A stretch of 64,000 nt of DNA from an uncultured Bacteroidales bacterium (lineage in GTDB: Bacteria; Bacteroidota; Bacteroidia; Bacteroidales; ML635J-15). The notes under the pieces are model-generated. The model did no database searches, was not told the DNA's origin, and saw nothing but the letters and a program-made list of their open reading frames with translations. Position 1 is the first letter of the stretch. Each line of letters opens with the position of its first letter. The stretch covers positions 635 through 64,634 of the forward strand of contig CALJNE010000008.1 of the NCBI GenBank assembly GCA_937982115.1. The letters run 5' to 3'. This document shows positions 10,872 to 55,689 of this stretch, piece by piece. Position numbers and translations under genes: made by a program.

Positions 10872-13800
10872 TTATTTCACTACGAACTTATTGCTGTAAT
10901 TTTGATTCCTTGTTCTAACCTCAATTAAATAAAGTCCGGGAGCAAAATTATTTATATCTATTTTTAGCTTATTTGTATTAGCAGTTTCGTTATATATTTT
11001 TCTCCCTGTAATATCATAAATTTCAATTTTTACTATTCTGTCATCGCTGCTGATGTTTAAGAAATCACTTGCAGGATTTGGCCAGCATAAAATATTGTTT
11101 GATGATAAATTATTTGAGTTAATGTTAGGTTCTTCAACAATAAGGCTGATTGGAATGCTTCTGTTTTCGATGTTTGAGAATATTTTTAGCAAGCAGTTAT
11201 ATTCTCCTGGCAGCATGTCTGTTGTGTTAAATTCCAGAAGAATTTCGTTTTCGATACCGATTCCGAGTGATCCTCCAGTATTAGGTGTATATACCCAATT
11301 TATGTGTCGTCCGAAATTGGTTATTTCGATAGTATCTAAAACTGTATGAGGTTCAGCTCCATAGATTTCTCCTTGTAAAACATAAGGAATTCTAAGATTA
11401 CCCTCAAAATCAGGAGATATGCTTCCATAAACATTAAAATATGCAGTTTCGTTAACGTGAATAAGTCCCCAACCGGAGTTGTCTTGACCAAACCAGACAA
11501 ATTCTCCGCCATTACCGGGAATTCCGCTAATTAAATACAAAGTGTCGTTGGATTGGTCGAACATGTGTGTTATTGAATCAATTATTATTCCTTCAGGAAA
11601 ACTAACTCTTACTTCTTTAATCCATTCATTATCGGGAGAAAGATTTTTTGCAGTAAATTTCCAGGCGAATTGGTCTCCTGCAAAAAACGAATTTGCATTT
11701 GTCCACATGTAGGATCCTGAAATATTTCTTTGATTACGTAGCCAGGGCACATCTTCGAGTATTTGGAGAGTATAATTTATAATCCCTCCTCCCATATTCG
11801 AAATAGTTATAATTTCTTGTTCTATGTTATTCGGAGCCATGACTTTATTTATATCTTCGGGAATTACTGTAAGCAATGGGGCAGGATCATAAATTGGAGG
11901 AAATTCGATGTCGTCAATCCAGACTCTGTCAAGAAATGAATTAACAGATCCGTCTTTTTTATACACCCACTTGAAGGTTCGTATTCCCGGCTGAACGGGA
12001 TATGTAAATTTTTGCCATATTGTTTGTCCATCCCAACGAGCTTTTTCTTGTCCGTCAATATAAAATGCAAGATAATCATAGTTATTGTTGGCATCGTCTT
12101 CGCAGGATGTTTTTCTGTAAAAACTTATGCTTCCCGGCGACATGACCTGTACTTGAATCATAATTTCGGAAGTTTGATTATGTGTTATTGGTCCTGACCT
12201 TAAAGAATAAATCCCCGACCACGCTGTGTCAGTTGTAAATTGCCATGGAAGATCACCGCCGTGCACCCAGTTGAAGTTGTCGAAACTTGCTGATTCCCAG
12301 TCTTCAATAATTTGACCAATGCTTATATGTCCGGTAATAGTTTTGGAATATCCGTTATTACCTGTTAAATAAAATGTCATTGTAGCAACATGACCCGGCG
12401 GGCATAAATCAGATGCCGTGATATTGAAAACTGATTGTATTGTTTGGTTTGCGATTATGTTTCCGGCTGAAAATGTATTTTGATTTATTGTAAGAAATGG
12501 ATTATTTGTATTTACTGTAATGTTAAGATTTTCGATGCCGGAGCCTCCGTTATTTACAAAGTAAAAACTCACGTCACTTGTTTCTCCAATATCAAGACGT
12601 AAATTGTCATTGTCATCAACCACATAATGACTTAGTATTAAGTTTGCGGTATAAACAGGATATTGAAGGTCAATTTCCCAGCTTCCCTGGTCTGATAGTG
12701 CAGTTAGGTGGAATGTTAGAATTTGTCCATTTGTGAAATTGTAATTCAAATTAAACACAAAAGCTGAATTAACGGCAATTTCCTGCAAAGGATTTAATTG
12801 ACCGATTTGTTGGGAATTTACAACAAATTGAACATTCGGATTTTGACAGCTTAAATTTATGGAAAGATTAGTAATTGGTTGTTCTGTGGCATTTCTTAAA
12901 TTAACATTTATGGTGCCTGTTTCGCCCCATTCCAGAAAGTTATTGTTTGGAGTTGTTAATTGGGTGGAGATTATCAATCCTTCGGTGGAGATTGGGATAG
13001 TCTTTTTATTTACTATTCCTTTTGCGTCGGTAACTTTAAAATTTAATGGGTATGCTAAAATTTCCTGATCAGGAACTCCTGTAAGCAGCCCACTTGGACT
13101 TAAGTTAAAATATTCGGGAGTAAATTTAGGCTCGAAACTATAACCGATATTTGAAAGCGGGTAGTAAGTGCCGCTGACAGGACTTAGAAAATAGCCATGC
13201 AGGTCGCCGTTTGAAACTCCGGATGACCAAACAAGATTATTTACCGGTGTACAGTTATTATAATATATTGAAATTTTTCCGTTACTTTCAAGTTTTACAG
13301 AAACATCAATATTTGTTCCTACCCAACGAACAATATAATAATCGCTTCCTTGCAGAAAATACTTTGTACAAGATTGAGTGGAATAAAAGGCTGCGATGGA
13401 TCTTCGGTTAGCAAATCTTGTTTGATAATTACTTAAAGCAATATTACTATTCATATAGGGGAGATTATAAGATTCTCCCGAAAAATCAATTAAGCCATAA
13501 TTTGTAATCCAGCATGAAGTGTATTTTCTGTCAAAAAACGGAAATTCAAAAGGCAAAGTAATTTGTGTGGCAGAAAGAGTATTGGTAGCTAAGGGTATTG
13601 GAGTTTCAGCAGTTGAAATTTTGTAATCAGTATCAAATTCCCATAAATATGGTGGAGTGCCTCCTGCAGCTTCCATCTGATAGTTGTAGTTATGATAAAC
13701 ATTAGCATTAGGAAGAGAATTTGTAGTTATCTGGGGTTTTTGAAAATTTAGAGTATGGTTTACATAAACTGTTGTAACTCCATTTTGAATTATTGGGACA

Positions 13801-15149
13801 TTAGTTTGCGAGCTTTGAACTTCAGTGGGCATTGTTCCGGTATAATCTAAAACCGAAAAACTGATAATATTTCCATCACCCCAGCCCTCTGGATCGTTTT
13901 CGTATATGCTGAAAAAGAATCTTGCTTCTTGTCCGGGATTTAGAAAATTAACAAATTCGGTAAGGTCGAGACCAAACTCAAGGTAGCAGAAATTTTCTTC
14001 GTTTTCGCCCTGCAATCCCCAATCATTGCCTTGATAGTCAATTATGGGATAAAACATTGTATATTCAGGTTGTGTGGCAGCAGGATTTGCACTCATACCT
14101 GCCATAATTTTTATTCTTTTTCGTTTAGTGTAATAAAGATTAACTTTTGCTGTTAGGGTAGGAGAGTATTCTTTTACCGGAATAAGAACGTTAACTGTAT
14201 GATTCCATATTCCTCCTTCGTTTGAGGCTAGGGCAAGGGTGCGATACATCATCCATCCGTTATAAGCACCTCCGAATGTATTGCACATTTTAAAACCTCC
14301 GATTTCCCAATCGCTAACATCAATTATTCCATCATTATTTAAATCAATATGATTTGTGTAAATACCATCATCATTGTAGTCCCATCGAATAGAATCATTA
14401 TATCCTGTAATGGTCATAGCATGATTTGGATTGCTTCCCCATAGTGTTATCACTTTTTCGCCTTCATGTTCAGTACCGGGCGGTAAAACTGTTGTAGGAT
14501 TCTGATGTTGAGAATAAAAGATAGCAATACCTCCGTCGGGGCTGCCGTCGAGATGGTCATTAAGCCAGTGTTTTAAGGTTAATATTCCTTCTTCGGTAGA
14601 GCAGTTTATGGCATAGGCTTTAAAAAGACGGTTTTGCATTGCAATATAATAATTGTCGTAGCCTGTCATCCATCGTTTTGGACCACCATAGGCATGAGTG
14701 CCTCCATAAGTTTGCATATCAGGTGTGCCGACTTTTTTTAGTAATACAAAAGTGTGATAATAACTTGCTCCATAATATCCGTCACCTCCGTTTTCCCAGT
14801 TCCATGCAAAATGTGTAGGGTATTTGTTTTGAACCAAACTACCGTTTCTATTTCGCAATCTGTTCATTTCGTACGTAAAAGCATTCCCTACACAAGCTGC
14901 CTGCCCGCATGAAAGCCCGTCTTGATTAAAAAGCCCACTGTAATATGGTAAAACAGTATTATCAACAGCATAAGGCAGAGATTTATTTTTATATGAAGGA
15001 GGTAATTTTAATTCAGGTAAACTCATTAATTCGATTTGCTCCTTTTCACTAAGAGGTTGTATAATTTGGAGCGGTGCTTCCACAACATTTTGAGCCTGAA
15101 TACTATAAATACAAAAAAACAAAATCGCAATCCCCAAAAACTTTTTCAT
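10872..15149 (-). CDS. T9SS-secreted papain-fold (C1-like) cysteine protease with multiple accessory beta domains
   Basis: Signal peptide; LPYAVD; NQDGLSC (Cys81); NHAMTITGY (His243); CNTFG (Asn290); Ig-like and other beta modules; C-terminal WPNP...GLY type A CTD. Confidence 0.8.
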   Translation of the reverse strand: MKKFLGIAILFFCIYSIQAQNVVEAPLQIIQPLSEKEQIELMSLPELKLPPSYKNKSLPYAVDNTVLPYYSGLFNQDGLSCGQAACVGNAFTYEMNRLRNRNGSLVQNKYPTHFAWNWENGGDGYYGASYYHTFVLLKKVGTPDMQTYGGTHAYGGPKRWMTGYDNYYIAMQNRLFKAYAINCSTEEGILTLKHWLNDHLDGSPDGGIAIFYSQHQNPTTVLPPGTEHEGEKVITLWGSNPNHAMTITGYNDSIRWDYNDDGIYTNHIDLNNDGIIDVSDWEIGGFKMCNTFGGAYNGWMMYRTLALASNEGGIWNHTVNVLIPVKEYSPTLTAKVNLYYTKRKRIKIMAGMSANPAATQPEYTMFYPIIDYQGNDWGLQGENEENFCYLEFGLDLTEFVNFLNPGQEARFFFSIYENDPEGWGDGNIISFSVLDYTGTMPTEVQSSQTNVPIIQNGVTTVYVNHTLNFQKPQITTNSLPNANVYHNYNYQMEAAGGTPPYLWEFDTDYKISTAETPIPLATNTLSATQITLPFEFPFFDRKYTSCWITNYGLIDFSGESYNLPYMNSNIALSNYQTRFANRRSIAAFYSTQSCTKYFLQGSDYYIVRWVGTNIDVSVKLESNGKISIYYNNCTPVNNLVWSSGVSNGDLHGYFLSPVSGTYYPLSNIGYSFEPKFTPEYFNLSPSGLLTGVPDQEILAYPLNFKVTDAKGIVNKKTIPISTEGLIISTQLTTPNNNFLEWGETGTINVNLRNATEQPITNLSINLSCQNPNVQFVVNSQQIGQLNPLQEIAVNSAFVFNLNYNFTNGQILTFHLTALSDQGSWEIDLQYPVYTANLILSHYVVDDNDNLRLDIGETSDVSFYFVNNGGSGIENLNITVNTNNPFLTINQNTFSAGNIIANQTIQSVFNITASDLCPPGHVATMTFYLTGNNGYSKTITGHISIGQIIEDWESASFDNFNWVHGGDLPWQFTTDTAWSGIYSLRSGPITHNQTSEIMIQVQVMSPGSISFYRKTSCEDDANNNYDYLAFYIDGQEKARWDGQTIWQKFTYPVQPGIRTFKWVYKKDGSVNSFLDRVWIDDIEFPPIYDPAPLLTVIPEDINKVMAPNNIEQEIITISNMGGGIINYTLQILEDVPWLRNQRNISGSYMWTNANSFFAGDQFAWKFTAKNLSPDNEWIKEVRVSFPEGIIIDSITHMFDQSNDTLYLISGIPGNGGEFVWFGQDNSGWGLIHVNETAYFNVYGSISPDFEGNLRIPYVLQGEIYGAEPHTVLDTIEITNFGRHINWVYTPNTGGSLGIGIENEILLEFNTTDMLPGEYNCLLKIFSNIENRSIPISLIVEEPNINSNNLSSNNILCWPNPASDFLNISSDDRIVKIEIYDITGRKIYNETANTNKLKIDINNFAPGLYLIEVRTRNQNYSNKFVVK

Positions 15150-24400: not shown

Positions 24401-25084
24401 ATGGAGAAAAATATTATTGAATTTCTGAAAAAAAATCATTTATTTAATGGATTATCAGAAATCAGAATATCGCAAATATTGTCTAAAATAAATTACAAGA
24501 TTAAATCGTACCGGAAAAATGATTTAGTATTTTTAAATAATGAATATTGTAAAGATTTGGTTATTTTGTTGGATGGAAGTTTACGTTCAGGATTTTATAA
24601 AGACAACGGTTCTTCTGTAATGATAAATAGAGGTGCATATAGCCCCGGCTGTTATCGCTCCGGCATTTTTATTCGGGAAAAAACAATGTTTTCTGGTTTA
24701 TGTAGTCTCAGAATGTAATTCAACTATTTTGCTCATTTCAAAAAATATGTTTTTGGAAGAGGTGTTAAGTGAACGTGAAATTTTATTGAACTATCTTAAT
24801 ATAGTTTGTTCAAAAGCACAGTTCTTAGCAGAAAAAGTTAGATTTTATTCAGTTTATGATTTGAGGCGGAGGATTATTCACTTTTAATAAACAATTATGA
24901 TTTGGAGGAAGGAAAATCCACTATATTATCAATTACATTAAAGGAACTTTCAGAAATTTTAGGTGTTGAACGACCATCCATTTCCAGGATATTAAAACAA
25001 CTTTGTGAAGAAGGTTTAATTGAGTATTGTTCATAAAAAATTAAGATATTGAATTTTACTGAACTCCGTCGTGATTTAGAATAA
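24401..25084 (+). pseudogene. Crp/Fnr-family (HcpR-like) regulator disrupted by two frameshifts and a nonsense codon
   Basis: cNMP-binding N-terminus in the 24401 frame, then IEVHIAPAVIAPAFLFG in another frame after about 24626, then back at about 24884 to an HTH (LKELSEILGVERPSISRILKQL), TAA at 25034-25036, then KIKILNFTELRRDLE* ending 25084. Confidence 0.85.
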
Positions 25085-25086
25085 TT

Positions 25087-26352
25087 CTATCTCTTTTTCA
25101 ATCTTATCGCTTCCCAAAATTTTTTTGAGCTTTGCTCTTTTTGATTGTTCCCGTATTCGTAGAATTTCAGCTTTTTAATTTTTTCGGGTAGGTATTGCTG
25201 TTCGGTAAAATTATTTTCGAAATTGTGCGGATATTTGTAATCTGCACCATAACCGATATTTTTCATCAATTTTGTGGGGGCATTTCGCAAGTGCAAAGGT
25301 ACAGGCAAATTACCGCTTTCTTTTACCGCAGCTAAGGCTTTATCAATAGCTAAATATGCTGAATTGCTTTTAGGACTGGTTGCAAGATATATTGTAGTTT
25401 CTGAAAGTATAATCCTTGCTTCCGGCATACCAATTTTGCTAACCGCATCGAAACAGGCATTTGCGAGTAATAATGCATTTGGATTTGCCAATCCGATATC
25501 TTCGGCTGCTAAAATTATCAATCTTCGGGCTATGAATTTAATATCTTCGCCAGCATCAAGCATCCTTGCCAGCCAATAGAGTGCTGCATCGGGGTCTGAT
25601 CCTCTGACGGATTTTATAAAGGCCGAAATAATATCGTAATGATATTCTCCTGTTTTATCGTAAACATTTATTTTTTCTTGAAGTTTTTCTGCTACAGTCT
25701 TATTGTCAATGATTATTTCATCTCCGGTTTCGGAAGTGCAAATAATTTCGAGTATGTTGTACAGTTTTCTGGCATCACCGCCGGAAAATCGGTAGACTGC
25801 GTCTTTTTCAAGAACCTTTATGTTTTTTTTTGATAATTCTGTATCGGTTTTTATGGCTTTTTCGATTAATACATCCAGATCTTTTTCTTCGAGATGTTTT
25901 AAGATATAAACATGACATCGAGAGAGCAGGGGAGGAATGACTTCAAAAGATGGATTTTCGGTTGTTGCTCCAATTAAAATAACCGTTCCTTCTTCAACAG
26001 CTGCCAATAAGGAGTCCTGTTGAGATTTGCTGAAACGGTGAATCTCATCAATAAATAGTATTGGAGCTTTTGTATTAAACAGAGCATTCTTACGTGATTG
26101 TTCGATTACTTCACGCAAGTCTTTTACTCCACTGTTTATGGCACTAAGAGCGTAAAATCCGCGATTACTTACTGTTGAAATTATTTTTACAAGAGTTGTT
26201 TTTCCTACGCCCGGTGGTCCCCATAAAATCATGGAATGCAAATTTCCGCTTTCAATCATTTTACGAAAAGGGCTATCGGGGGAACTGAGATGTTCCTGAC
26301 CAACATATTCATCAAAATTTTTTGGTCTTAGACGTTCAGCAAGTGGTTTCAC
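25087..26352 (-). CDS. rarA: Replication-associated recombination protein A (MgsA)
   Basis: PLAERLRP, WGPPGVGKT, DEIHRF, GATTENP, ISAFIKSVRGSDPDA, VPLHLRNAPT. Confidence 0.97.
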   Translation of the reverse strand: MKPLAERLRPKNFDEYVGQEHLSSPDSPFRKMIESGNLHSMILWGPPGVGKTTLVKIISTVSNRGFYALSAINSGVKDLREVIEQSRKNALFNTKAPILFIDEIHRFSKSQQDSLLAAVEEGTVILIGATTENPSFEVIPPLLSRCHVYILKHLEEKDLDVLIEKAIKTDTELSKKNIKVLEKDAVYRFSGGDARKLYNILEIICTSETGDEIIIDNKTVAEKLQEKINVYDKTGEYHYDIISAFIKSVRGSDPDAALYWLARMLDAGEDIKFIARRLIILAAEDIGLANPNALLLANACFDAVSKIGMPEARIILSETTIYLATSPKSNSAYLAIDKALAAVKESGNLPVPLHLRNAPTKLMKNIGYGADYKYPHNFENNFTEQQYLPEKIKKLKFYEYGNNQKEQSSKKFWEAIRLKKR

Positions 26353-26407: not shown

Positions 26408-28441
26408 TTATTCTACAATTTTAAAGCAATATTCAAAGGTTGATATTTTTTCTGATGAAGCTTTGGAAGTTGTTGATGCTCCACGAGTTGTTCCTAAACC
26501 TCCGCCTAATACAGTTTCAAAAATATTTGAGCTGTCGCCACGTGATGCAGTGCCTCTGTTTGTGATTTGCTGAGTTAAATTCATAGGTTTATCTGAGCTT
26601 ATAACTTTAAAAATTTCGTTTCCATAAGGAGGACCAAACATTATCAGTGTATTTTTTAGAATTGCCGATTCTCCTGGAGCAAGTGAATACTCACGACCAT
26701 CAGTATCTTCTAACGTTGGAATAATGGGATTAATAAAACCGTCGGGTTGAATGTCAATAATGTTGAAAAATGCTTTTTTACTACCCTGGTTGGTTACTCT
26801 AATAACAGCATAATTGTCTGTGGAAAATGCCGGAGTTCCGTTTTTATCAAATATTGACATTGGTTCTAGATACTCTAGAATTTTAAAATCTCCGTCTTCA
26901 TCAACAATCGCTTTGACAGGGATAAGTTCCATTGTAATATAATACCTGTCGTCGTAGTAATCCATGTCCTTAATAAGTTTTCCCTGAGAGTAATTTTGAA
27001 TCGAGGACAGTACATTTTTTATCAGATTTTCATCGCTTTGTTCCGAAATGCTTTCAATTTCCTTGTTATATATTGCGTTAACTATTCTGAAATTTTTTGC
27101 TCCTCTTGTTTTAGAAAAGTTTAGAGTTAATTCGGGATTTTCGTTGGAAATTTTTGCGAAAAATGAGGAGTTTATTTGCTTTTCAAGTATAGTTTTTATT
27201 TCGGGGTCGGTTTTTGAATCAATCGAAACATAAATGATTTTTTGAGGTGGGGTTTTTGAAATTGGATAAGCCCATGTTTCAGCAGTTGATTTGAATTTAT
27301 ATTTTTTATCGAGAAGTACTGTTGAATAAAGATTTGTACTACTTATAACTTTACCTGTCGTTATGGTGTTATTATCGTCGGGTAAGGTAGCTCCCGGTAT
27401 TGTAAAAGCAATTTTACTTCCGGGGTTAATGCCTCCGATTTGTCCGACATTTATTTCTACAATCGAATCATTTTTTATTGATTTCAAATTGAAATAAGCC
27501 GGTGGATTATTAAAATTTCCATTGAACAAAACATAATCAATATCTCCTTCGATTGCAGGATTTTGATTAGGAGCTTTTGAACTCATTTCAGCAAGAATTT
27601 TTGCATAAATCTGCCTGTATGTTTCTTCTCCTTTGATGTTGGAAAATGCTTTGTAAATGCAATATGACAAAGAACCTACCGGATTATTTTCTTCATCAAA
27701 AGTTTCGTAATTAAGTTCATTGGCAGAAGCTCCTGAAATAACAACGAATTTTGCAAGATTGTCGTTTTTTATACCTCTGGCTTGTGTTTTACTGTTATCG
27801 TTTTGGTAAATTCCAAAACCTGTTTTGTTGTCCGAAACATTTTTAGGCGGAGTCCATCCTTGGGGGACAAGTGGAGGTGCGCCGCCGCGTACCTTTGCAG
27901 AACCTCTTGTTCCTGTTCCGGAATGGCAACAGTCAAGAAAAACCAAGACATGTCCTTGAGAACCGAGTTTAGTTCGAAATTTCATTAACCATTCACCGAG
28001 TTCATCGTCTCTGAAATGTTTGCTGCCATCATACCCGGGAATCATTTTATTGGGAGCATCATAGCAAACAAGAGCTTCATCGAGCCCGTCTATTTCGTCT
28101 CCATTATCATCAAAAATCTGTTGTCCGTGTCCGCTGTAATGAATTACAATTTGATCTCCTTCGCCAATTTTAGAATACAGTTGATTAAAAGCATTGATAA
28201 TACCTTGTTTTGTGGCTTGTTCATCAATAATGTAGATGATATTTTCGTTTGAAAAACCTATAGAAATCAATGATTTTTCAATTAATTTAACATCATTATG
28301 TGTATTTATCGGATACCATCCTGTTTTTTCCTGATCATAATTTCCTATTGCAATTATAATAACATATTTATCTCCATCGCTTTTTGCGAAGCAATGAATA
28401 AATATAGAAAATAAAGTCATGAAAATAAAACTTTTTTTCAT
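26408..28441 (-). CDS. Exported caspase-family (C14, metacaspase/orthocaspase-like) peptidase with a C-terminal DUF4384-like domain
   Basis: Signal peptide; HYSGHG (His105); DEIDGLDEAL; RDDEL; LDCCHSG (Cys172); C-terminal FNIIDIQPDG...PPYGNEIFKVI. Confidence 0.85.
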   Translation of the reverse strand: MKKSFIFMTLFSIFIHCFAKSDGDKYVIIIAIGNYDQEKTGWYPINTHNDVKLIEKSLISIGFSNENIIYIIDEQATKQGIINAFNQLYSKIGEGDQIVIHYSGHGQQIFDDNGDEIDGLDEALVCYDAPNKMIPGYDGSKHFRDDELGEWLMKFRTKLGSQGHVLVFLDCCHSGTGTRGSAKVRGGAPPLVPQGWTPPKNVSDNKTGFGIYQNDNSKTQARGIKNDNLAKFVVISGASANELNYETFDEENNPVGSLSYCIYKAFSNIKGEETYRQIYAKILAEMSSKAPNQNPAIEGDIDYVLFNGNFNNPPAYFNLKSIKNDSIVEINVGQIGGINPGSKIAFTIPGATLPDDNNTITTGKVISSTNLYSTVLLDKKYKFKSTAETWAYPISKTPPQKIIYVSIDSKTDPEIKTILEKQINSSFFAKISNENPELTLNFSKTRGAKNFRIVNAIYNKEIESISEQSDENLIKNVLSSIQNYSQGKLIKDMDYYDDRYYITMELIPVKAIVDEDGDFKILEYLEPMSIFDKNGTPAFSTDNYAVIRVTNQGSKKAFFNIIDIQPDGFINPIIPTLEDTDGREYSLAPGESAILKNTLIMFGPPYGNEIFKVISSDKPMNLTQQITNRGTASRGDSSNIFETVLGGGLGTTRGASTTSKASSEKISTFEYCFKIVE

Positions 28442-28458
28442 AAATTTTATTTAAAGAA

Positions 28459-28487
28459 GCGAACAGAACCACGATGATTCTGTTTGC
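28459..28487 (-). terminator. Intergenic hairpin/leaky terminator between the small protein and the caspase gene
   Basis: Minus strand reads GCAAACAGAATC-ATCGT-GGTTCTGTTCGC followed by TTCTTTAA. Confidence 0.6.
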
Positions 28488-28496
28488 CATGTTGAA

Positions 28497-28925
28497 CTAA
28501 AAATCCTGACCGTCAGATTTTTTTATTTCTTGTTCTTCGCTTTCTTCCATTTTTAACAGAAACTGTTCATTGCATTCTCCTTCGCTAAACCATTGATAGG
28601 TGTCGCCGATTGTGCGGCAATAAACTTCTTCGAAATTTTTTGGCAAAACTACTGATGAAGTTTCCCACGGATTTAATCTTCCTCTGTAAACTTTGTCAAT
28701 CCATACATCAATGTAAAAGCCTGTCCAGTTGTCTAATTTTACCACACATCCTCCTCTTGATAAAGCCGGTTTTTCAACAAAAACATCGGTTGTTGGGATT
28801 ACATACTCAGAAACACCTCTCGATTGAGTAACTTTTTTAGCCGTTAAAACAGTTTGTGCATTTAAACTGTTAAAAATGAAAATAAATAGCACAATAATAG
28901 CAGATAAAACAAATTTAGTTTTCAT
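28497..28925 (-). CDS. Small secreted hypothetical protein with RG motifs and a beta-sandwich-like core
   Basis: Signal peptide ending LNA-Q; QSRG and LSRG in the N-terminal linker; core CVVKLDNWTGFYIDVWIDKVYRGRL. Confidence 0.7.
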   Translation of the reverse strand: MKTKFVLSAIIVLFIFIFNSLNAQTVLTAKKVTQSRGVSEYVIPTTDVFVEKPALSRGGCVVKLDNWTGFYIDVWIDKVYRGRLNPWETSSVVLPKNFEEVYCRTIGDTYQWFSEGECNEQFLLKMEESEEQEIKKSDGQDF

Positions 28926-28950: not shown

Positions 28951-28958
28951 CAAAATTA
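28951..28958 (-). promoter_or_regulatory. -7 promoter box for the small protein-caspase pair
   Basis: Minus strand reads TAATTTTG, 25 nt upstream of the ATG. Confidence 0.55.
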
Positions 28959-29087
28959 ATTCGAAAACAAAAATATAACAAAAAACAAGCCAAAAATAAT
29001 AAACTTCAAAAAATATTGAAAATTATCGAGAATTAAATCTTAAAAATAATGGTAAAGAAAAATTATGTATAAATATAAATAACTTGC

Positions 29088-30164
29088 TTAATAGCGTAAA
29101 ACCAAAGCAATGTTAGAATTTATATCATTCATAAGTTCCGGTTCAAGAAAAACAGCATCGCCACCTTTTTCAAGTACAATTTCAATAATTTCATCATAAA
29201 TATCGTCTGTTATGTATTTATTATCGGTACTCTCAAAATTTTCATCAACCGGAATAACTTTATTTTCTTCAATTATTGCTCTTTGAAAAGTTCTTTTTTT
29301 GACAAATATCGTTTTAGCTCTTCCTTGATTTGCCATTTCCCAGATATCAGACAAATCAGTAATAACCTTTCCTGCTGAAACAGCTGCCCTTAATTCTGCA
29401 ATTCTACTGTGATTCTTATTGTCTATAAACTCCTTTACAACAGACCACGCATCAAAAACTATGTGAATATCTTTATCAGCATCTCTGTTTTTATTTATAT
29501 GACCAATAATAGCATCTTTATGTTTTGTGATTTCGAGATAATATTGAAAGTTCCTTTTTTCACAAGCAATTACTATTGGCAATGGATATTGTTTTGTTAT
29601 TTCTGAAAAAGTATTATCAACCTTATTGAAAAATTCTTTGATGTAATTATCAACAAGAGTAGTATTGGATAATTCAGTTTTTGATTTTGGAAATAGATTA
29701 TTTTCGAGAGGGAAAGTATCTTTAAATTCTTTAATTACATTATCATTAAAGGCTTCGATTAGTCTTGCCTGAGTTCTTGAGATTACTAATACGTAATATG
29801 CTTCTTGAGAGTGCATTGCCCGAACAATATCTCTTGTAGCAAAAGTTTTATCAACAATAGTTCTATCAACAACAGGAACAGCCAATCTGATATATTCAGC
29901 AAAATCCTTATTTGCAAATAAAAGTAGGCTTTCAAGATTATGGCTATGATCTATTTTTTGTGCTAAAACATAAATCTTATCTAAAATCGGCATGTAAATT
30001 TTCTTGTCGTATCTCGACACTAATTTTTCCTCTGCTATTTTTATGTGGTTTTTTAGGTTTAGAGGATCTTTTTCGTAATCCGGTTTTGTTCTGTGTGTGT
30101 TAATGATAATTGAAACACATACATCATCCTTAATTTGCTTGATTTTTAAAAAAAATGCTTTCAT
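29088..30164 (-). CDS. baeRF3-family aeRF1-like protein, probable Balon-type ribosome hibernation factor
   Basis: CVSIIINTHRTKPD..KD.LNLKN, FATRDIVRAM, YYVLVISRTQARLIEA, C-terminal D.I.D.IIEIVLEKGGDA; no GGQ motif. Confidence 0.75.
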   Translation of the reverse strand: MKAFFLKIKQIKDDVCVSIIINTHRTKPDYEKDPLNLKNHIKIAEEKLVSRYDKKIYMPILDKIYVLAQKIDHSHNLESLLLFANKDFAEYIRLAVPVVDRTIVDKTFATRDIVRAMHSQEAYYVLVISRTQARLIEAFNDNVIKEFKDTFPLENNLFPKSKTELSNTTLVDNYIKEFFNKVDNTFSEITKQYPLPIVIACEKRNFQYYLEITKHKDAIIGHINKNRDADKDIHIVFDAWSVVKEFIDNKNHSRIAELRAAVSAGKVITDLSDIWEMANQGRAKTIFVKKRTFQRAIIEENKVIPVDENFESTDNKYITDDIYDEIIEIVLEKGGDAVFLEPELMNDINSNIALVLRY

Positions 30165-50370: not shown

Positions 50371-52002
50371 TTATTCTTTTTCGGCTTCGGATATTATTTT
50401 TATTCTGCAGGTACTACCTTTTTTAGCATAAAAGCCGGGTTTAATTCTTATGCTTTCTTTAGCAGTTATGTTAACTTTAACACCGGAGTCTATCACAAAT
50501 CTATCGGTTGAGAGGCTATCAGTAAAAACAAATGGTTCTGCAAATACCGGATAGGTTTTAGTTCCGCGTATAAATCGAGGGTCTATCGTAAGTGAAGATT
50601 TCGAGAAGAAATCCTGGTCGTAAACTACATTACGGGCATATAAATTGAGGGATGGATTAAAATTAGTCAACTGGAATAAAACAATTTGAGCATGGTCGAG
50701 AGATTTTTGCCCGCCATACCAACCTGGGGTTAAATCAAGATTATTTAATTGCTCTAAATATTCTTTCATTGTAATATCTAATGCTTTTAAAGTATCGTCG
50801 GGGAAATCAAATTCGGCAAAATTCACAAATGCTATTGCATTGGTTTTTTTAATAATTTCTAATCTTTCTGCATTATATTTTTCTTCTGCATAAGTAGTTC
50901 CAATAGATCCGTCAACGGCAATTTTGTAGTTACCGTTATTATACAAATTATATACAAAGGTATTTCTAAATCGTCGTATGTCTGTTATTGAAAAATAATT
51001 TTGATTTGGTCTGAATTTGTAATATTCATAAGGAAACATCATCACAATTTTACCATGACTTACGTCTTCGATATATTTAGTGTATCCGGAATAAGATGGA
51101 GATCTACGCACTGAAAATTTTCGACAAGATGTGTATGCTAATCGCCAGCCGTTGTGATACCACCAGTAAGAATCATTTTCGGGATTGAGAATAAAAACAG
51201 GGTTTTCGTATTTTATTTTATTGCATCTGTCAAAAAAAATCACAGTTGATTTGTGCAGGTATGCAAGAGTATCAGCCATTAAAAGGTATTCGGGATTATC
51301 TGTTGATAAGCCAAGAAATAAAAGAGTTCTGGCAAAACCGGTTTGCATGTTAATTACAAGTTCTTCGCCTGGAGGTTGGAGAATGCCGCGACTATAATCC
51401 CATAGACCGCCGTAAACAAAAAAATCCAGAGTTTCACGGGTGCGTTTCTCGAGCCAATCGGCATATTCTCCGAAAGTGTTGAATTTAATTCCCGAGAAAT
51501 TACAGAATTTAGTGTTTTCCACATATTTTTCGGGGTCGAGTTCTTCAAATTGATATAGTGGAGTATTTATTAAACTTGTGTCGAGCACTCTAACAAGAAA
51601 AATAAATTTCGCAAATGATGCGGTTATATAACCATCGGCATAAGTTGATCGGTCGGTTTCTGTCCATTTTGGGGTCTTGGCTTCAGCAGCAGGATTTATA
51701 TCATTTCTGTTTTCTATTATACATAATGATTGTAATATAAATTTGTATAGGTATGCTTTGTCTCTGGTTGCAATGTATAAGTCAATAAAGCCATCCAGCA
51801 CTTTTGTAAGCCCGTCTCCGAAAGTATTCCAGTCTTTATTGGGGTCAATGGTGTATAAACTGTATCTGCGAGGCCAATCCCAATTGTAATAATCGAAATC
51901 CTCTTTTATGTTAATGTTTTCGAAAGTATTTTGAGAAAAGCTTTGCAATCCCAAAATGCTTAAAAATAAAATACAAATTATATGTTTTATTCTGAAAGGC
52001 AT
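50371..52002 (-). CDS. Secreted hypothetical protein, helical core plus C-terminal beta domain resembling the 3-coathanger stack
   Basis: Signal peptide; aromatic-rich helical region with YWWY and EDVSHG; C-terminal ITAKESIRIKPGFYAKKGS. Confidence 0.6.
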   Translation of the reverse strand: MPFRIKHIICILFLSILGLQSFSQNTFENINIKEDFDYYNWDWPRRYSLYTIDPNKDWNTFGDGLTKVLDGFIDLYIATRDKAYLYKFILQSLCIIENRNDINPAAEAKTPKWTETDRSTYADGYITASFAKFIFLVRVLDTSLINTPLYQFEELDPEKYVENTKFCNFSGIKFNTFGEYADWLEKRTRETLDFFVYGGLWDYSRGILQPPGEELVINMQTGFARTLLFLGLSTDNPEYLLMADTLAYLHKSTVIFFDRCNKIKYENPVFILNPENDSYWWYHNGWRLAYTSCRKFSVRRSPSYSGYTKYIEDVSHGKIVMMFPYEYYKFRPNQNYFSITDIRRFRNTFVYNLYNNGNYKIAVDGSIGTTYAEEKYNAERLEIIKKTNAIAFVNFAEFDFPDDTLKALDITMKEYLEQLNNLDLTPGWYGGQKSLDHAQIVLFQLTNFNPSLNLYARNVVYDQDFFSKSSLTIDPRFIRGTKTYPVFAEPFVFTDSLSTDRFVIDSGVKVNITAKESIRIKPGFYAKKGSTCRIKIISEAEKE

Positions 52003-52559
52003 TTTTGTTTTAGTTGTTGATTTTCGTTTTCGAGTTTATTTATTCTTTCATTCAATATTTCGATGTATAAATATAATTCTTCGATGTTTTGCAAAAGTCC
52101 TTTCATTGTTTCGGTGATTTGAATTCCGTTTTCTGTTACGGATTTTTCAGGTTTCATGTATGGAAGATGCTTTTGTTCTTTTATAAAACTTATTCTTTCC
52201 GAAAGTGGTTGTAATTTATAGTTTTCGTTGAAAACAAAGTCACACCATTCATTTGTTTCAACAATTAATTCTTCGCTGGCTCTAATAGACCCGCACACAT
52301 CAAGTTTATACTTTGGTGAATTTTTTCCAAAAGAGAATCTTCCAATGCTGTCAATAGTTAGTATTGGTTCATCGTTTCGGAAAAGTGTAAGTGATAAATT
52401 AGCGGAGTCGGCCTTGTAACTGATGTTGAATTGAGGATTTTTATAAATTTCTACAGGATCGTAGATCTTCTTTTGCTTGATCCTTGTTGTATTTTGACCA
52501 AAATATTGATTTCCAAAAGCAAGTAGTACAAAAATTGTTAACAAAACTTTTACTTTCAT
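51987..52559 (-). CDS. Secreted protein with a tail-fibre/S74-chaperone-like C-terminus
   Basis: KLDV.GSIRA.E, W.DFVF..NYKL.PL, KHLP, LLQNIEELYLY, terminal coiled coil. Confidence 0.7.
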   Translation of the reverse strand: MKVKVLLTIFVLLAFGNQYFGQNTTRIKQKKIYDPVEIYKNPQFNISYKADSANLSLTLFRNDEPILTIDSIGRFSFGKNSPKYKLDVCGSIRASEELIVETNEWCDFVFNENYKLQPLSERISFIKEQKHLPYMKPEKSVTENGIQITETMKGLLQNIEELYLYIEILNERINKLENENQQLKQKCLSE

Positions 52560-52581
52560 AAGTTATATATTTTATAATTAA

Positions 52582-54219
52582 CTACCTGAAAATTTCTTGT
52601 AAAGTATTACCTGTACTCAAAGGGGGAACAGGAGTACCAATCATTACCGAAATTGTGGGGGCAATATCGCTGATGCTGATTTCGCGATAAAGAGTTTGTT
52701 TTTTTACTTTCCATCCGTAAAAAATTAAGGGGACATGAGTGTCGTACCTGTAGCCGGTGTTGTGGTCGGAGCAATAAGGAATGTCTTCTATCCAGCCGGC
52801 ACGCAACGAAATCATTATATCTCCAGATCTTTTAAGGTTAAAAGAGTTTTGCATTTTCTGCGGCATTCCGGATGTGTAATTAATGTTTAAAAATTGATTG
52901 GAACTTATTGCATTTGCAATTCCTGCAGAATTTATTATGAATGTAACCACTTTTTCCTGAAACTCGGCTAAAGAAATTTTTGAATCTTCAATTAAAACTC
53001 TGTTAAGATAAATTTGACTGTTATTAAAATCGAGAATCCAGTCGCCTTCGCCATAAATAGCTCTTAAGTATGATTTCAAAAGCGCGATAATATAATGTTG
53101 TCTGAAAGATCCGGCAGGTAATTTATTATCGAGCAGATATTGAGGAGGATCGGCCATGCCGTGATTTGACGTAAGATAAATAAGTACATTGTTTTTACCA
53201 ACAACATCTTCGATAACTTCTATTAGATGTCCAAGGTCTTTGTCGAATCTAATTAACAAATCTTCAATTTCCAGAGATTGAGGACCGAACAGACGTCCAA
53301 TTTTTTCGGGAACAGAATAATTTACAAACAAAAAATCGGTGTAATCATCTTTTCCGAGATTTTCGTAATAAATAGTTGCAATAGCGAGGTCGTTAAGGTG
53401 TGTGTTACCTTCGGGAATCATTGTCATCAATTCATAATCCCTCACAGTTTTGGTTATTTCGGAATAAATGTATGGGAAAGTTTTGTACATACCGTCAATA
53501 CCGAATTCGTAGTCGTTTCGGTCGGGAAGGAGGCTTGTGTATTTTTCTTTTTCGAGCGATAAATCCCATTGTCTTTTTAGATAGTCGTCGCAATTTTTGT
53601 TTTGGTTAATGTCTTTTATCCAAACAGGCAAATCGTTCACGTAATAAGTTGAACTTGTCCAGGCACCGGTAGCAATATCGAACCAATAAGCAGCATCGGC
53701 TGAAAAACCGCCTGAAAGTACCGCAGCATAAGGGTTAAGACTAATACTGATAATTTTTGATTTTCCGTTATAAAATAATTTGGCTTCGTCGGCAAATGTA
53801 GTCGAAAGCATTTTTAAAGGCGAAAATGAACCTTTTTCTTTTTTACGGGCAAGAGTATTGTAATTATAATCTTCAATACAATCTTCTTTTTTTGAAGTTA
53901 TGGGATTAAACCAGTAATTGCTTACAATTCCGTGTTGGGCAGGTTCGGTGCCGGTAGAAATAGTGGCATATCCGGGGGCTGTTTGTGTGAGGCTGTAGTT
54001 AATTACAGTATTGCGACAATAAGAACCGTTATTTGCAAGTTTTTTGAAACCTTTATTGCCGAAATTATTCCAGAATCTGTCGAGATAATCCTGTCGCATG
54101 CCTTCAACAACAATTCCTACAACTAATTTTGGTTTCTCTGATGGTATTGTGGATTCTAATTGTGTGAAAGCTTGTGCCGTAAGTAGCAGTAATATAAATG
54201 TAAAAATAGTTTTTCCCAT
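52582..54219 (-). CDS. Alkaline phosphatase superfamily (PafA/NPP-like) protein with a degenerate metal site
   Basis: KPKLVVGIVV.GMR.DY, TAPG.ATISTG, GIVSN.W, GP.S.E..D, T.NHG, YDTHVPLIFYG. Confidence 0.85.
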   Translation of the reverse strand: MGKTIFTFILLLLTAQAFTQLESTIPSEKPKLVVGIVVEGMRQDYLDRFWNNFGNKGFKKLANNGSYCRNTVINYSLTQTAPGYATISTGTEPAQHGIVSNYWFNPITSKKEDCIEDYNYNTLARKKEKGSFSPLKMLSTTFADEAKLFYNGKSKIISISLNPYAAVLSGGFSADAAYWFDIATGAWTSSTYYVNDLPVWIKDINQNKNCDDYLKRQWDLSLEKEKYTSLLPDRNDYEFGIDGMYKTFPYIYSEITKTVRDYELMTMIPEGNTHLNDLAIATIYYENLGKDDYTDFLFVNYSVPEKIGRLFGPQSLEIEDLLIRFDKDLGHLIEVIEDVVGKNNVLIYLTSNHGMADPPQYLLDNKLPAGSFRQHYIIALLKSYLRAIYGEGDWILDFNNSQIYLNRVLIEDSKISLAEFQEKVVTFIINSAGIANAISSNQFLNINYTSGMPQKMQNSFNLKRSGDIMISLRAGWIEDIPYCSDHNTGYRYDTHVPLIFYGWKVKKQTLYREISISDIAPTISVMIGTPVPPLSTGNTLQEIFR

Positions 54220-54236
54220 AATCTTTCAAATTGTCG

Positions 54237-54244
54237 CAAATATA
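54237..54244 (-). promoter_or_regulatory. -7 promoter box for the PafA-like operon
   Basis: Minus strand reads TATATTTG. Confidence 0.55.
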
Positions 54245-54285
54245 CACTTTTAAAATCATGGATGTATATTCTTAACGAAAAAATT

Positions 54286-54442
54286 CAGAATGCGACAGTA
54301 ACTCGTTGGACATTCTGCAAATTATCTACGATAATTTAGTAGGCTTCGTACTCTGACAGACTTTTTGTTGAGTAGTTTTCAGTTCGTCGTTTTAATGTTT
54401 GTGCAGGAGTAAGTTGTTTGCGTTGTATTATTTATTTGCTCC
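54286..54442. other. Structured intergenic element (five hairpins); sRNA, terminator region or repeat element
   Basis: Hairpins at 54286-54317, 54319-54337, 54338-54352, 54353-54372 and 54406-54442. Confidence 0.35.
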
Positions 54443-54462
54443 ATGTACCATGTACCTTTTCC

Positions 54463-55689
54463 CTACCACCTTTTTATTATCATTAATACTTTTTTCAAGG
54501 CCTCAATAAACATGTCAATCTCATTGAAGGTATTGTAGAACGCAAAAGAAATTCTGACGGTACCGGGAATATTAAATTCTTGCATTATGGGTTCGGCACA
54601 ATGTGTACCTGTTCTTAAAGCTATCCCCATTTTATCAATTAATATTCCTATATCCGAAGGATGTACATCGTCAACACTGAAAGATATTACAGCAGATTTT
54701 TTTTCAGCTTGACCGATAATTTTTATTTCGGGAAATTCTTTTAGCCTCTCCGTTGCGTAGTTTAAAAGTTCTGTCTCGTAATTATAGATATTGTGGAGTC
54801 CGATTTTTTCGATGTATTTAATAGCTTCGGCAAGAGCAATTGTGTCAATATAATTAGGCGTTCCGGCTTCGAATTTATATGGTAAAACATTGAAAGTAGT
54901 TTTTTCGACCGTAACTTTCGAAATCATTTCTCCTCCACCTTGATATGGAGGCATTTTTTCGAGTAATTCTTTTTTTCCGTAAAGAACACCTGTTCCTGTA
55001 GGACCATAAATTTTATGTCCGGAAAAAACATAAAAATCACAATTTAACTTTTGAACATCTACTTTAATGTGTTGAATAGCCTGTGCTCCGTCAATAAGAA
55101 CAGGAATATTATGATTATGAGCAATTTCAATTATTTCTTCAATGGGATTTATTGTTCCGAGAGCATTCGAAACATGAGTTACTGCAATGATTTTAGTTTT
55201 TGGTGTGATAAGTTTGGGAAGTTCATCAATAATAAGTTCACCTTTGGTGTTAAAGTTTAAAACTTTCAGTTCAGCTTTTTTTCTTTCGCAAAGTAATTGC
55301 CATGGAACAAAGTTAGAATGATGTTCCATTTTAGAAACGATTATTTCATCTCCTTCATTTATAAATGCTTCTCCGAACGAAAAAGCCACAAGGTTTATGG
55401 ATTCTGTAGTTCCTTTGGTTAAAATAACTTCTTTAACCGATGAGGCATTAATAAAATTCTTGATTACTTCGCGAGCTTTTTCTGTTGCTTGTGTTGAATA
55501 ATCACTCAAAAAATGTACTCCTCTATGAATATTTGCATTATAATTTGAATAAAAATCTGCAATCGTGTCAATTACAATTTTTGGTTTTTGTGTTGTGGCT
55601 GCATTATCAAAATATACCAGAGGTTTGTTATATATTGTTCTGCTCAGGATTGGAAAGTCTTTTCTAATATCTTCTATTATTTCTTTCAT
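54463..55689 (-). CDS. sufS: SufS-type (group II) cysteine desulfurase
   Basis: YFDNAATTQKP, EHHSN, DGAQ, FSGHK, RTGTHCA. Confidence 0.95.
   Translation of the reverse strand: MKEIIEDIRKDFPILSRTIYNKPLVYFDNAATTQKPKIVIDTIADFYSNYNANIHRGVHFLSDYSTQATEKAREVIKNFINASSVKEVILTKGTTESINLVAFSFGEAFINEGDEIIVSKMEHHSNFVPWQLLCERKKAELKVLNFNTKGELIIDELPKLITPKTKIIAVTHVSNALGTINPIEEIIEIAHNHNIPVLIDGAQAIQHIKVDVQKLNCDFYVFSGHKIYGPTGTGVLYGKKELLEKMPPYQGGGEMISKVTVEKTTFNVLPYKFEAGTPNYIDTIALAEAIKYIEKIGLHNIYNYETELLNYATERLKEFPEIKIIGQAEKKSAVISFSVDDVHPSDIGILIDKMGIALRTGTHCAEPIMQEFNIPGTVRISFAFYNTFNEIDMFIEALKKVLMIIKRW

Follow-up and report, generated by a model that had tools for sequence, protein, structure and literature searches.

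Bacterial caspase homologs are abundant, and to our knowledge almost none of their natural substrates have been identified. As of a 2017 review, MaOC1 of Microcystis aeruginosa was the only orthocaspase that had been characterised biochemically (PMC5756287). Some prokaryotic metacaspases carry N-terminal helices that are possibly signal peptides, and operons with several metacaspases occur in Bacteroidetes (PMC3501461). What, then, would an exported metacaspase cut? The question is raised by two adjoining genes of an uncultured Bacteroidales bacterium (ML635J-15; GCA_937982115.1, contig CALJNE010000008.1), from which a stretch of 64,000 nucleotides (nt), hereafter the window, was analysed. One gene encodes a metacaspase-type protease of 677 amino acids (aa); the other, directly upstream, encodes a small protein of 142 aa that we call the partner. 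An earlier reading of the letters alone (the sequence-only reading) had placed both open reading frames (ORFs) where the ORF list has them, and had proposed that the protease cuts itself and the partner within Arg-Gly (RG) sequences. Here, we establish that the two are conserved together as a functional pair, a metacaspase-type protease and a new small protein, both probably exported, that have a conserved, exposed [ST]-R-G motif in common. That the Sec-exported enzyme cuts itself between Arg and Gly of this motif, and that the partner is its dedicated target by the same motif, is our tentative reading, to which we give almost an even chance.

Results

A metacaspase-type protease with a probable route to the periplasm

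Residues 25-298 of the protease match Peptidase_C14 (PF00656) with an E-value of 6e-18, and the best solved relative of its family profile is the yeast metacaspase Yca1 (4f6o, E-value 4e-20). In this alignment HYSGHGQQ, DDNGDEIDGLDE and DCCHSGT of the protease stand opposite HYSGHGGQ, DLDGDEEDGMDD and DSCHSGT of Yca1. The acidic cluster resembling a Ca site, DDNGDEIDGLDE, is aligned with EDLDGDEEDGMDD of Yca1, whose acidic motif is DGDEEDGMDD, and a second block of the alignment is the p10-like part. The catalytic dyad named in the sequence-only reading, H105 within HYSGHG and C172 within DCCHSG, is invariant among 107 homologs, and the two acidic motifs that it had pointed out, DEIDGLDE and RDDE, are both present. 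D111, E116, D121 and E122 of the acidic cluster are invariant in the same homologs, as are D50 and D170. The last of these lies two residues ahead of the catalytic Cys, in a position which, by its place in the motif, may match D211 in the acidic S1 pocket of T. brucei MCA2 (TbMCA2). The AlphaFold2 (AF2) model, built on the 107 homologs, has a mean predicted local distance difference test score (pLDDT) of 84. Foldseek matches it with a probability of 1.00 to GSU0716 (E-value 3e-13), to AtMC4 and AtMC9 (1e-10 to 1e-9) and to TbMCA2. We conclude that the product of the larger gene is a cysteine protease of the metacaspase type (MEROPS C14B).

In the model, a signal helix (residues 2-18) precedes p20 (25-173), which holds both catalytic residues and the acidic cluster. 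A flexible linker (174-230), the p10-like part (231-299), a middle region of beta and alpha/beta structure (300-495), a DUF4384-like sandwich (500-616), a flexible tail (617-665) and a terminal strand (666-675) follow in this order. Among the homologs, the terminal strand has the consensus TxExxFxI. The sequence-only reading had called the last large domain DUF4384-like; the modelled sandwich and the PF14326 (DUF4384) matches of many homologs agree with this, among them a match at residues 534-614 of one homolog (L040; E-value 1.4e-3, below the cut-off), although the window protease itself does not match PF14326 in Pfam at E <= 0.01.

The signal peptides of both proteins were judged by eye, and we see them where they had been claimed; they are accompanied by the modelled helix in the protease and by a conserved Gln in the partner. 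From its N-terminus, the protease is probably exported by the Sec pathway and periplasmic. Its C-terminus is modelled as a flexible tail and then a single strand, and Pfam finds no Por_Secre_tail domain of the type IX secretion system (T9SS) in the protease or the partner. We also considered the protease as a lipoprotein attached through Cys17 and rejected this, because the Cys is not conserved in the N-termini of the homologs.

Arg-Gly motifs are enriched, conserved and mostly in disordered segments

Gly follows seven of the 14 Arg of the protease (R179, R185, R222, R446, R629, R634 and R653), where about 1.1 would be expected (shuffle p = 6e-5), and three of the five Arg of the partner (R36, R57 and R81; shuffle p = 1e-3). 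On recount these are exactly the figures of the sequence-only reading. With 2036 long ORFs of the same genome as background, in which 5.4% of Arg residues precede Gly, the protease ranks first for RG (binomial p 3e-6) and the partner sixth. The shared enrichment is beyond chance. It also extends to neighbouring caspases of several architectures which, dereplicated and pooled, have Gly after 18.9% of their Arg, compared to 6.9% in the other genes of the same loci; in larger operons no genes but those of the partner and the caspase show such an enrichment.

The conservation of the protease sites was scored in 34 homologs that reach down to 35% identity. Two sites (R179-G and R185-G) never vary, three (R222, R634 and R653) are kept in about 90% of the homologs and one (R446) in about 75% (25/34). 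The residue at P2 is Thr or Ser at five of the conserved sites and mostly Val at R185. The expectation that RG positions would be kept among homologs survives for six sites of the protease and for both linker sites of the partner; it fails for R629, the sole variable one of the seven, and for R81 of the partner, which is Lys in most relatives. Members of the protease family that have no partner nearby also keep [ST]RG. The tail site, T-R634-G-x-S-[SN]-N-[LI], resembles the first site of the partner, S-R-G-x-N-P-N-I.

The pLDDT of the protease model falls below 50 in four segments only (174-185, 206-224, 630-636 and 648-662; 53 residues in total). These segments contain R179, R185, R222, R634 and R653, so that the placement of RG sites in flexible regions by the sequence-only reading is right for five of the seven; R629 borders the third segment. 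Within the segments, Gly makes up 21% of the residues and follows all five Arg and none of the five Lys, whereas the seven Arg without a following Gly are all in ordered parts of the protein. The exception is R446-G, the turn between two strands of high pLDDT (438-445 and 448-455) that make up a confident beta hairpin. The division into catalytic, middle and DUF4384-like pieces that had been predicted does not agree with this layout, because the flexible sites lie in the p20-p10 linker and in the tail beyond the DUF4384-like domain, and the sole site between the middle and C-terminal domains is R446. From the positions of the flexible sites, cuts would instead yield p20, a block of the p10-like, middle and DUF4384-like parts, and a small C-terminal piece.

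The partner belongs to a new family of small, probably exported proteins

The partner has 43 close relatives, and an exhaustive profile search extends its family to 131 clusters (50% identity), with lengths of 125-160 aa in almost all. The family plan consists of a putative signal peptide ending in A/Q, an indel-rich basic linker and a beta-rich domain between C60 and C118, with C103 conserved in part of the family. The conserved Q24 after the signal peptide fits the Q-rule of Bacteroidetes, in which Gln follows the cleavage site of signal peptidase I (PMC5837995). The two linker sites have the family forms K-[ST]-R-G-x-N-P-N-I-K (site 1) and K-[ST]-R-G-x-x-C (site 2). At least one linker RG was found in 84 of the 114 representatives with a recognisable domain. 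Across the family linkers, Gly follows 126 of 263 Arg (48%) vs 51 of 720 Lys (7%), with Ser or Thr at P2 and Lys at P3. The AF2 model of the partner, made from 23 close sequences, has a pLDDT of 47; in this low-confidence model site 1 lies in a low-pLDDT region without secondary structure.

Pfam, NCBIfam and PADLOC contain no entry that matches the partner. A Pfam scan of 60 family members gave nothing beyond noise and no protease-inhibitor family, and a scan of seven longer or multi-repeat relatives gave no family. In a PDB profile search the partner found only short matches to designed repeat proteins, none of them credible. PADLOC, run on the pair, returned a generic caspase-domain match and no defence-system match. 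By its sequence, the partner is a member of a new family of small, probably exported proteins. We also tried the partner as a detached DUF4384 domain and rejected it, since a profile-profile comparison with the whole protease shows similarity in the signal peptide only.

The partner gene is linked to caspase genes

The partner is directly upstream of the protease in all 12 close loci (52-60% identity), and within 5 kb of it in 23 of the 80 Bacteroidota loci that make up the protease-side sample. Among 401 genomes sampled from the phylum, the protease family occurs in eight and the partner in three, each time adjoining a C14 gene. From the partner side, a metagenome scan with an alignment of four sequences gave 80 loci, 34 of which had at least 2.5 kb on both sides. 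A C14 gene lies within 2.5 kb in 33 of these 34, in counts that are not dereplicated and include several near-duplicate loci; the sole exception has a 1506-aa gene where sibling loci hold a 1390-aa caspase. The supposed tie between partner and caspase therefore recurs well outside the window, and it is stricter from the partner side than from the protease side.

In distant loci the two belong to an operon of the partner, a tetratricopeptide repeat (TPR) protein, a Trypsin_2/PDZ (HtrA-like) protease, the caspase, an output-less CHASE2 protein and a protein of about 300 aa. In the window genome and its 12 closest relatives the pair is alone, with no adjacent HtrA, TPR or CHASE2 gene. Adjacent CHASE2 and FecR-like genes were not found in the window or the 12 closest loci and were found in 6 of the 80 family loci. 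The only CHASE2 gene of the genome (427 aa, output-less) is on contig C12, in a row of genes at about 51500-55130 (-) (L092) that also includes a lipoprotein-like gene of 484 aa and a FecR-like gene of 277 aa. The product of the latter resembles the last protein of the distant operons, the one of about 300 aa after CHASE2. In this genome, pieces of the larger module are thus scattered. A second exported C14 protein (1009 aa) is encoded on contig C62 at 11279-14308 (+) (L094); behind its signal peptide come WD40-like repeats and, at the C-terminus, a caspase domain in which GTGTRG is missing after the catalytic Cys.

One subclade of the partner family has Lys in place of the motif Arg (GKKGK...K-T-K-C), and no caspase is nearby in its three contexts. 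It was seen in L086 (6001-7444), L175 and L176; in the first, the neighbours of the Arg-less partner are genes for a lipoprotein-like protein of 145 aa, a BON-domain protein and a regulator of the Crp type. In another locus (L090, 2316-5007), tandem partner paralogs (146 and 145 aa) are beside a 426-aa membrane protein and a 274-aa protein. The latter two may be unannotated CHASE2-like and FecR-like genes, on a contig too short to show a caspase.

Transcription and neighbouring genes

The partner gene comes first, and both genes are read from the minus strand (Table 1). The 55-nt spacer between them holds a terminator-like hairpin. A strong hairpin was found in the spacers of all six loci that were folded (the window, L001, L004, L005, L006 and L010; z from -3.1 to -6.4); its position is kept while its sequence differs, and mostly a U run comes after it. 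This suggests attenuation. Because the hairpin is conserved in position, the partner is probably made in excess over the protease, with the protease expressed by read-through.

The sequence-only reading had given the pair a promoter of its own. Three boxes of the Bacteroidota -7-like type make this plausible and are suggestive of a candidate promoter region at 28951-28998, although the pattern TAnnTTTG is not enriched over chance in the AT-rich window (113 matches vs 101 expected). A scan for sigma-70 promoters gave no higher number of sites than chance.

Table 1. Coordinates of the features of the pair in the window
Feature	Position	Strand	Basis and remarks
Protease gene	26408-28441	-	ORF; metacaspase-type protease, 677 aa, probably exported
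Putative protease signal peptide, aa 1-20	28382-28441	-	Sequence; AF2 helix 2-18; similar N-termini in homologs
Caspase (C14) domain, aa 25-299	27545-28369	-	Pfam; alignment with Yca1 (4f6o); Foldseek
p20-p10 linker, aa 174-230, with T-R179-G, V-R185-G and A-R222-G	27752-27922	-	pLDDT <50 at 174-185 and 206-224; conservation
Predicted middle beta and alpha/beta region, aa 300-495	26957-27544	-	AF2; T-R446-G in a hairpin turn
Predicted DUF4384-like beta-sandwich, aa 500-616	26594-26944	-	AF2 strands; PF14326 matches in homologs
Predicted flexible C-terminal tail, aa 617-665, with N-R629-G, S-R634-G and T-R653-G	26447-26593	-	pLDDT <50 at 630-636 and 648-662
Conserved terminal beta-strand, aa 666-677, TFEYCFKIVE	26411-26446	-	AF2 strand 666-675, pLDDT about 90
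Terminator-like hairpin in the 55-nt spacer	28462-28484	-	Folding
Partner gene	28497-28925	-	ORF; small, probably exported protein, 142 aa, unannotated family
Putative partner signal peptide, aa 1-23 (...SLNA/Q)	28857-28925	-	Sequence; Q24 at least 90% conserved
Partner site 1, S35-R36-G37	28815-28823	-	Invariant in 23 close relatives
Partner site 2, S56-R57-G58	28752-28760	-	Invariant in close relatives; three residues before conserved Cys60
Predicted beta-rich domain of the partner, aa 59-125, with conserved C60 and C118 as its bounds	28551-28751	-	Alignments; low-confidence strands 61-124
Three candidate TAnnTTTG boxes upstream of the partner	28951-28958, 28968-28975, 28991-28998	-	Match to the Bacteroidota-type -7-like pattern

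The gene that follows the protease after 55 nt is rarA/mgsA, encoding an AAA+ ATPase (25087-26352, -), and no terminator was found in the interval. rarA/mgsA also follows the protease in one relative (L005); this shared neighbour places the pair in a conserved chromosomal context and not on a mobile island. Upstream of the pair and outside it, a gene at 29088-30164 (-) encodes a baeRF family 3 protein with a match (E-value 1e-103) to the NCBIfam equivalog 'AOC03_06830 family ribosome hibernation factor'. Two ORFs of 105 and 84 aa overlap at 24401-24887 (+); by eye, they resemble a Crp/FNR-type regulator broken into two halves, possibly by a frameshift or as a pseudogene.

Discussion

A protease and its proposed dedicated target

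In the reading that we prefer, the enzyme would cut after Arg in the conserved [ST]-R-G sites of its only disordered segments. Like type II metacaspases and orthocaspases, it would become active by cuts between p20 and p10, here at R179, R185 and R222 of the linker, and cuts at R634 and R653 in the tail would free or loosen a C-terminal element. The partner has two K-[ST]-R-G copies in a disordered N-terminal region, just before the Cys-bounded beta domain, and we take it to be the dedicated target of the enzyme because it carries the same motif in such a region. It would most likely be a pro-protein from which the N-terminal region is removed, and the conserved intergenic hairpin would keep it in excess over the enzyme. 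The fold, the catalytic residues, the conservation of the motif, its place in flexible loops and the gene linkage are shown here; export, the specificity for Arg, the cuts at RG and which of the two proteins acts on the other are what we infer. The protease-substrate system proposed by the sequence-only reading is thus retained, with the conservation of RG, the gene linkage and the flexible sites behind it, and the fragments it had predicted are given up.

Comparison with known systems

The plant enzymes AtMC4 and AtMC9 (6w8r/6w8s, 8a53 and 9n3d) have the same fold, His and Cys motifs and acidic cluster as the protease. The dedicated pro-protein of AtMC4 is PROPEP1, from which the enzyme releases a signalling peptide. 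Type II metacaspases, to which the two plant enzymes belong, must cleave themselves, as orthocaspases must, and do so after Arg or Lys in the linker that joins p20 to p10 (PMC5756287). Unlike the protease, AtMC4 and AtMC9 are cytosolic and eukaryotic, have a much longer linker and no signal peptide, and are without fused beta domains or an RG-type site; in addition, their substrate gene is not adjacent. Closest by sequence or fold are the type I metacaspases Yca1 (4f6o), Candida glabrata MCA1 (7qp0) and TbMCA2 (4afp) and the bacterial GSU0716 (3bij), in which the p20 and p10-like parts align. Compared with these, the protease has a signal peptide instead of an N-terminal prodomain and about 380 extra C-terminal residues. 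Type I metacaspases show no self-cleavage between p20 and p10 (PMC5756287).

MaOC1 is, like the protease, a bacterial C14 enzyme. It cuts after basic residues and needs autoprocessing for its activity (PMC5756287), and it cleaves the protein of a neighbouring gene (PMC7935541). MaOC1 differs in being cytoplasmic and in consisting of p20 only, without extra domains, and the protein that it cleaves, an antitoxin, has no relation to the partner. In the window genome the DUF4384-like part is fused to the protease and CHASE2 is elsewhere. The partner is a family apart from DUF4384, with no profile similarity to the protease, the DUF4384-like region included.

The Arg-gingipains (RgpA/B) of Porphyromonas are extracytoplasmic, Arg-specific cysteine proteases of clan CD that mature type V pilins. 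They remove an N-terminal segment from these small exported beta-rich proteins, which are lipoproteins. Gingipains belong to family C25 and are T9SS cargo with a C-terminal domain (CTD), whereas Por_Secre_tail was not found in this pair. The partner has a signal peptidase I site followed by Gln instead of a lipoprotein signal, and its likeness to pilins is by analogy only.

Alternative explanations

The partner might instead be a pseudo-substrate inhibitor or regulator, which would place its K-[ST]-R-G loop, near the probably disulfide-bonded Cys60, in the active site or an exosite. The exported protease would then be held in check until a signal arrives, with its own RG sites still self-cleaved. 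We consider this possible and rather unlikely. It would suit an upstream gene separated from the protease by a conserved terminator-like hairpin and therefore probably expressed in excess, and a site 1 that is like the tail site of the protease, as a competitor's would be. It also suits a linkage that is strict from the partner side and not from the protease side. R57-G-G-C60 brings a P1 Arg close to a conserved Cys, much as in the reactive loops of ecotin and other canonical inhibitors, although inhibitors of this type are known for serine proteases and not for clan CD enzymes. However, the Pfam and PDB profile searches showed no similarity of the partner to any inhibitor family, and two conserved sites in a disordered region are more like a propeptide than a rigid reactive loop. 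We therefore prefer the partner as a pro-protein substrate over a pseudo-substrate regulator.

It is also doubtful that [ST]RG is read by another protease of the envelope, for example of the HtrA type, or that it is a binding or turn motif, with the pair linked in some other way such as a complex in a CHASE2-associated envelope module. The position of R446-G in a confident beta-turn would agree with a structural motif, and the distant operons do add a TPR protein, a Trypsin_2/PDZ protease and an output-less CHASE2 protein to the pair. The conservation of N-P-N-I-K on the primed side, too, goes beyond the need of a protease driven by P1. However, in the 12 closest relatives, as in the window genome, the pair stands without an adjacent HtrA, TPR or CHASE2 gene, which is against this reading, and HtrA-type proteases prefer an aliphatic P1. 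The RG enrichment is seen only in the caspase and the partner, and an Arg-specific protease beside conserved, exposed Arg sites is the simpler reading.

That the shared RG is a compositional accident of Gly-rich loops in two proteins with few Arg, and their adjacency without functional meaning, is hardly credible, in spite of the high Gly content of the disordered segments, given the restriction of Gly to the loop Arg (5/5 vs 0/5 for Lys), the persistence of the sites down to 35% identity, ranks of 1 and 6 among 2036 ORFs and a caspase gene in 33 of 34 partner-first loci.

Several points weigh against the pro-protein reading itself. Cleavage at the RG sites is a prediction from sequence and model, and we know of no metacaspase preference for Gly at P1'. 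R446 is in a structured hairpin, and at least one conserved [ST]RG may thus be structural. Export of both proteins is likewise read from inspection of their N-termini. The model of the partner is of low confidence (pLDDT 47). In 57 of the 80 protease-family loci the partner is not within 5 kb, which means that the motifs of the protease are independent of the partner. The coincident loss of Arg and of the caspase neighbour in the partner subclade is suggestive, being one evolutionary event seen in short contexts (2-6 kb). Moreover, this subclade keeps Lys-Gly (GKKGK), which a metacaspase could cleave.

A possible extracytoplasmic switch

The pair may be the minimal core of an extracytoplasmic caspase switch new to Bacteroidota, a speculative extension that we regard as improbable on the whole. 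The tail (T-R-G-x-S-S-N-[LI]) would hold the protease inactive, and the partner would copy the tail motif in its N-terminal region. Ca2+ or envelope stress would then lead to removal of the tail and processing of the partner in the periplasm, and the processed beta domain would be the output, as a signal or as an envelope-binding or polymerising unit. In the larger operons this core would be wired to HtrA-type proteases and output-less CHASE2 sensors.

Significance

In full-text literature searches we came across no account of this partner family, of an RG code or of a dedicated partner for an exported C14 enzyme, in line with the remark in the sequence-only reading that no such extracytoplasmic pair was known. 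The locus is a compact two-protein system in which the candidate cleavage sites are conserved, exposed and common to both proteins, and the partner subclade without Arg and without a caspase neighbour provides a natural negative control. If our reading is true, it would give the first substrate code for an envelope metacaspase and a function for a new family of small proteins. It would also open an entry to the wider, unstudied modules of exported caspases, DUF4384 and CHASE2.

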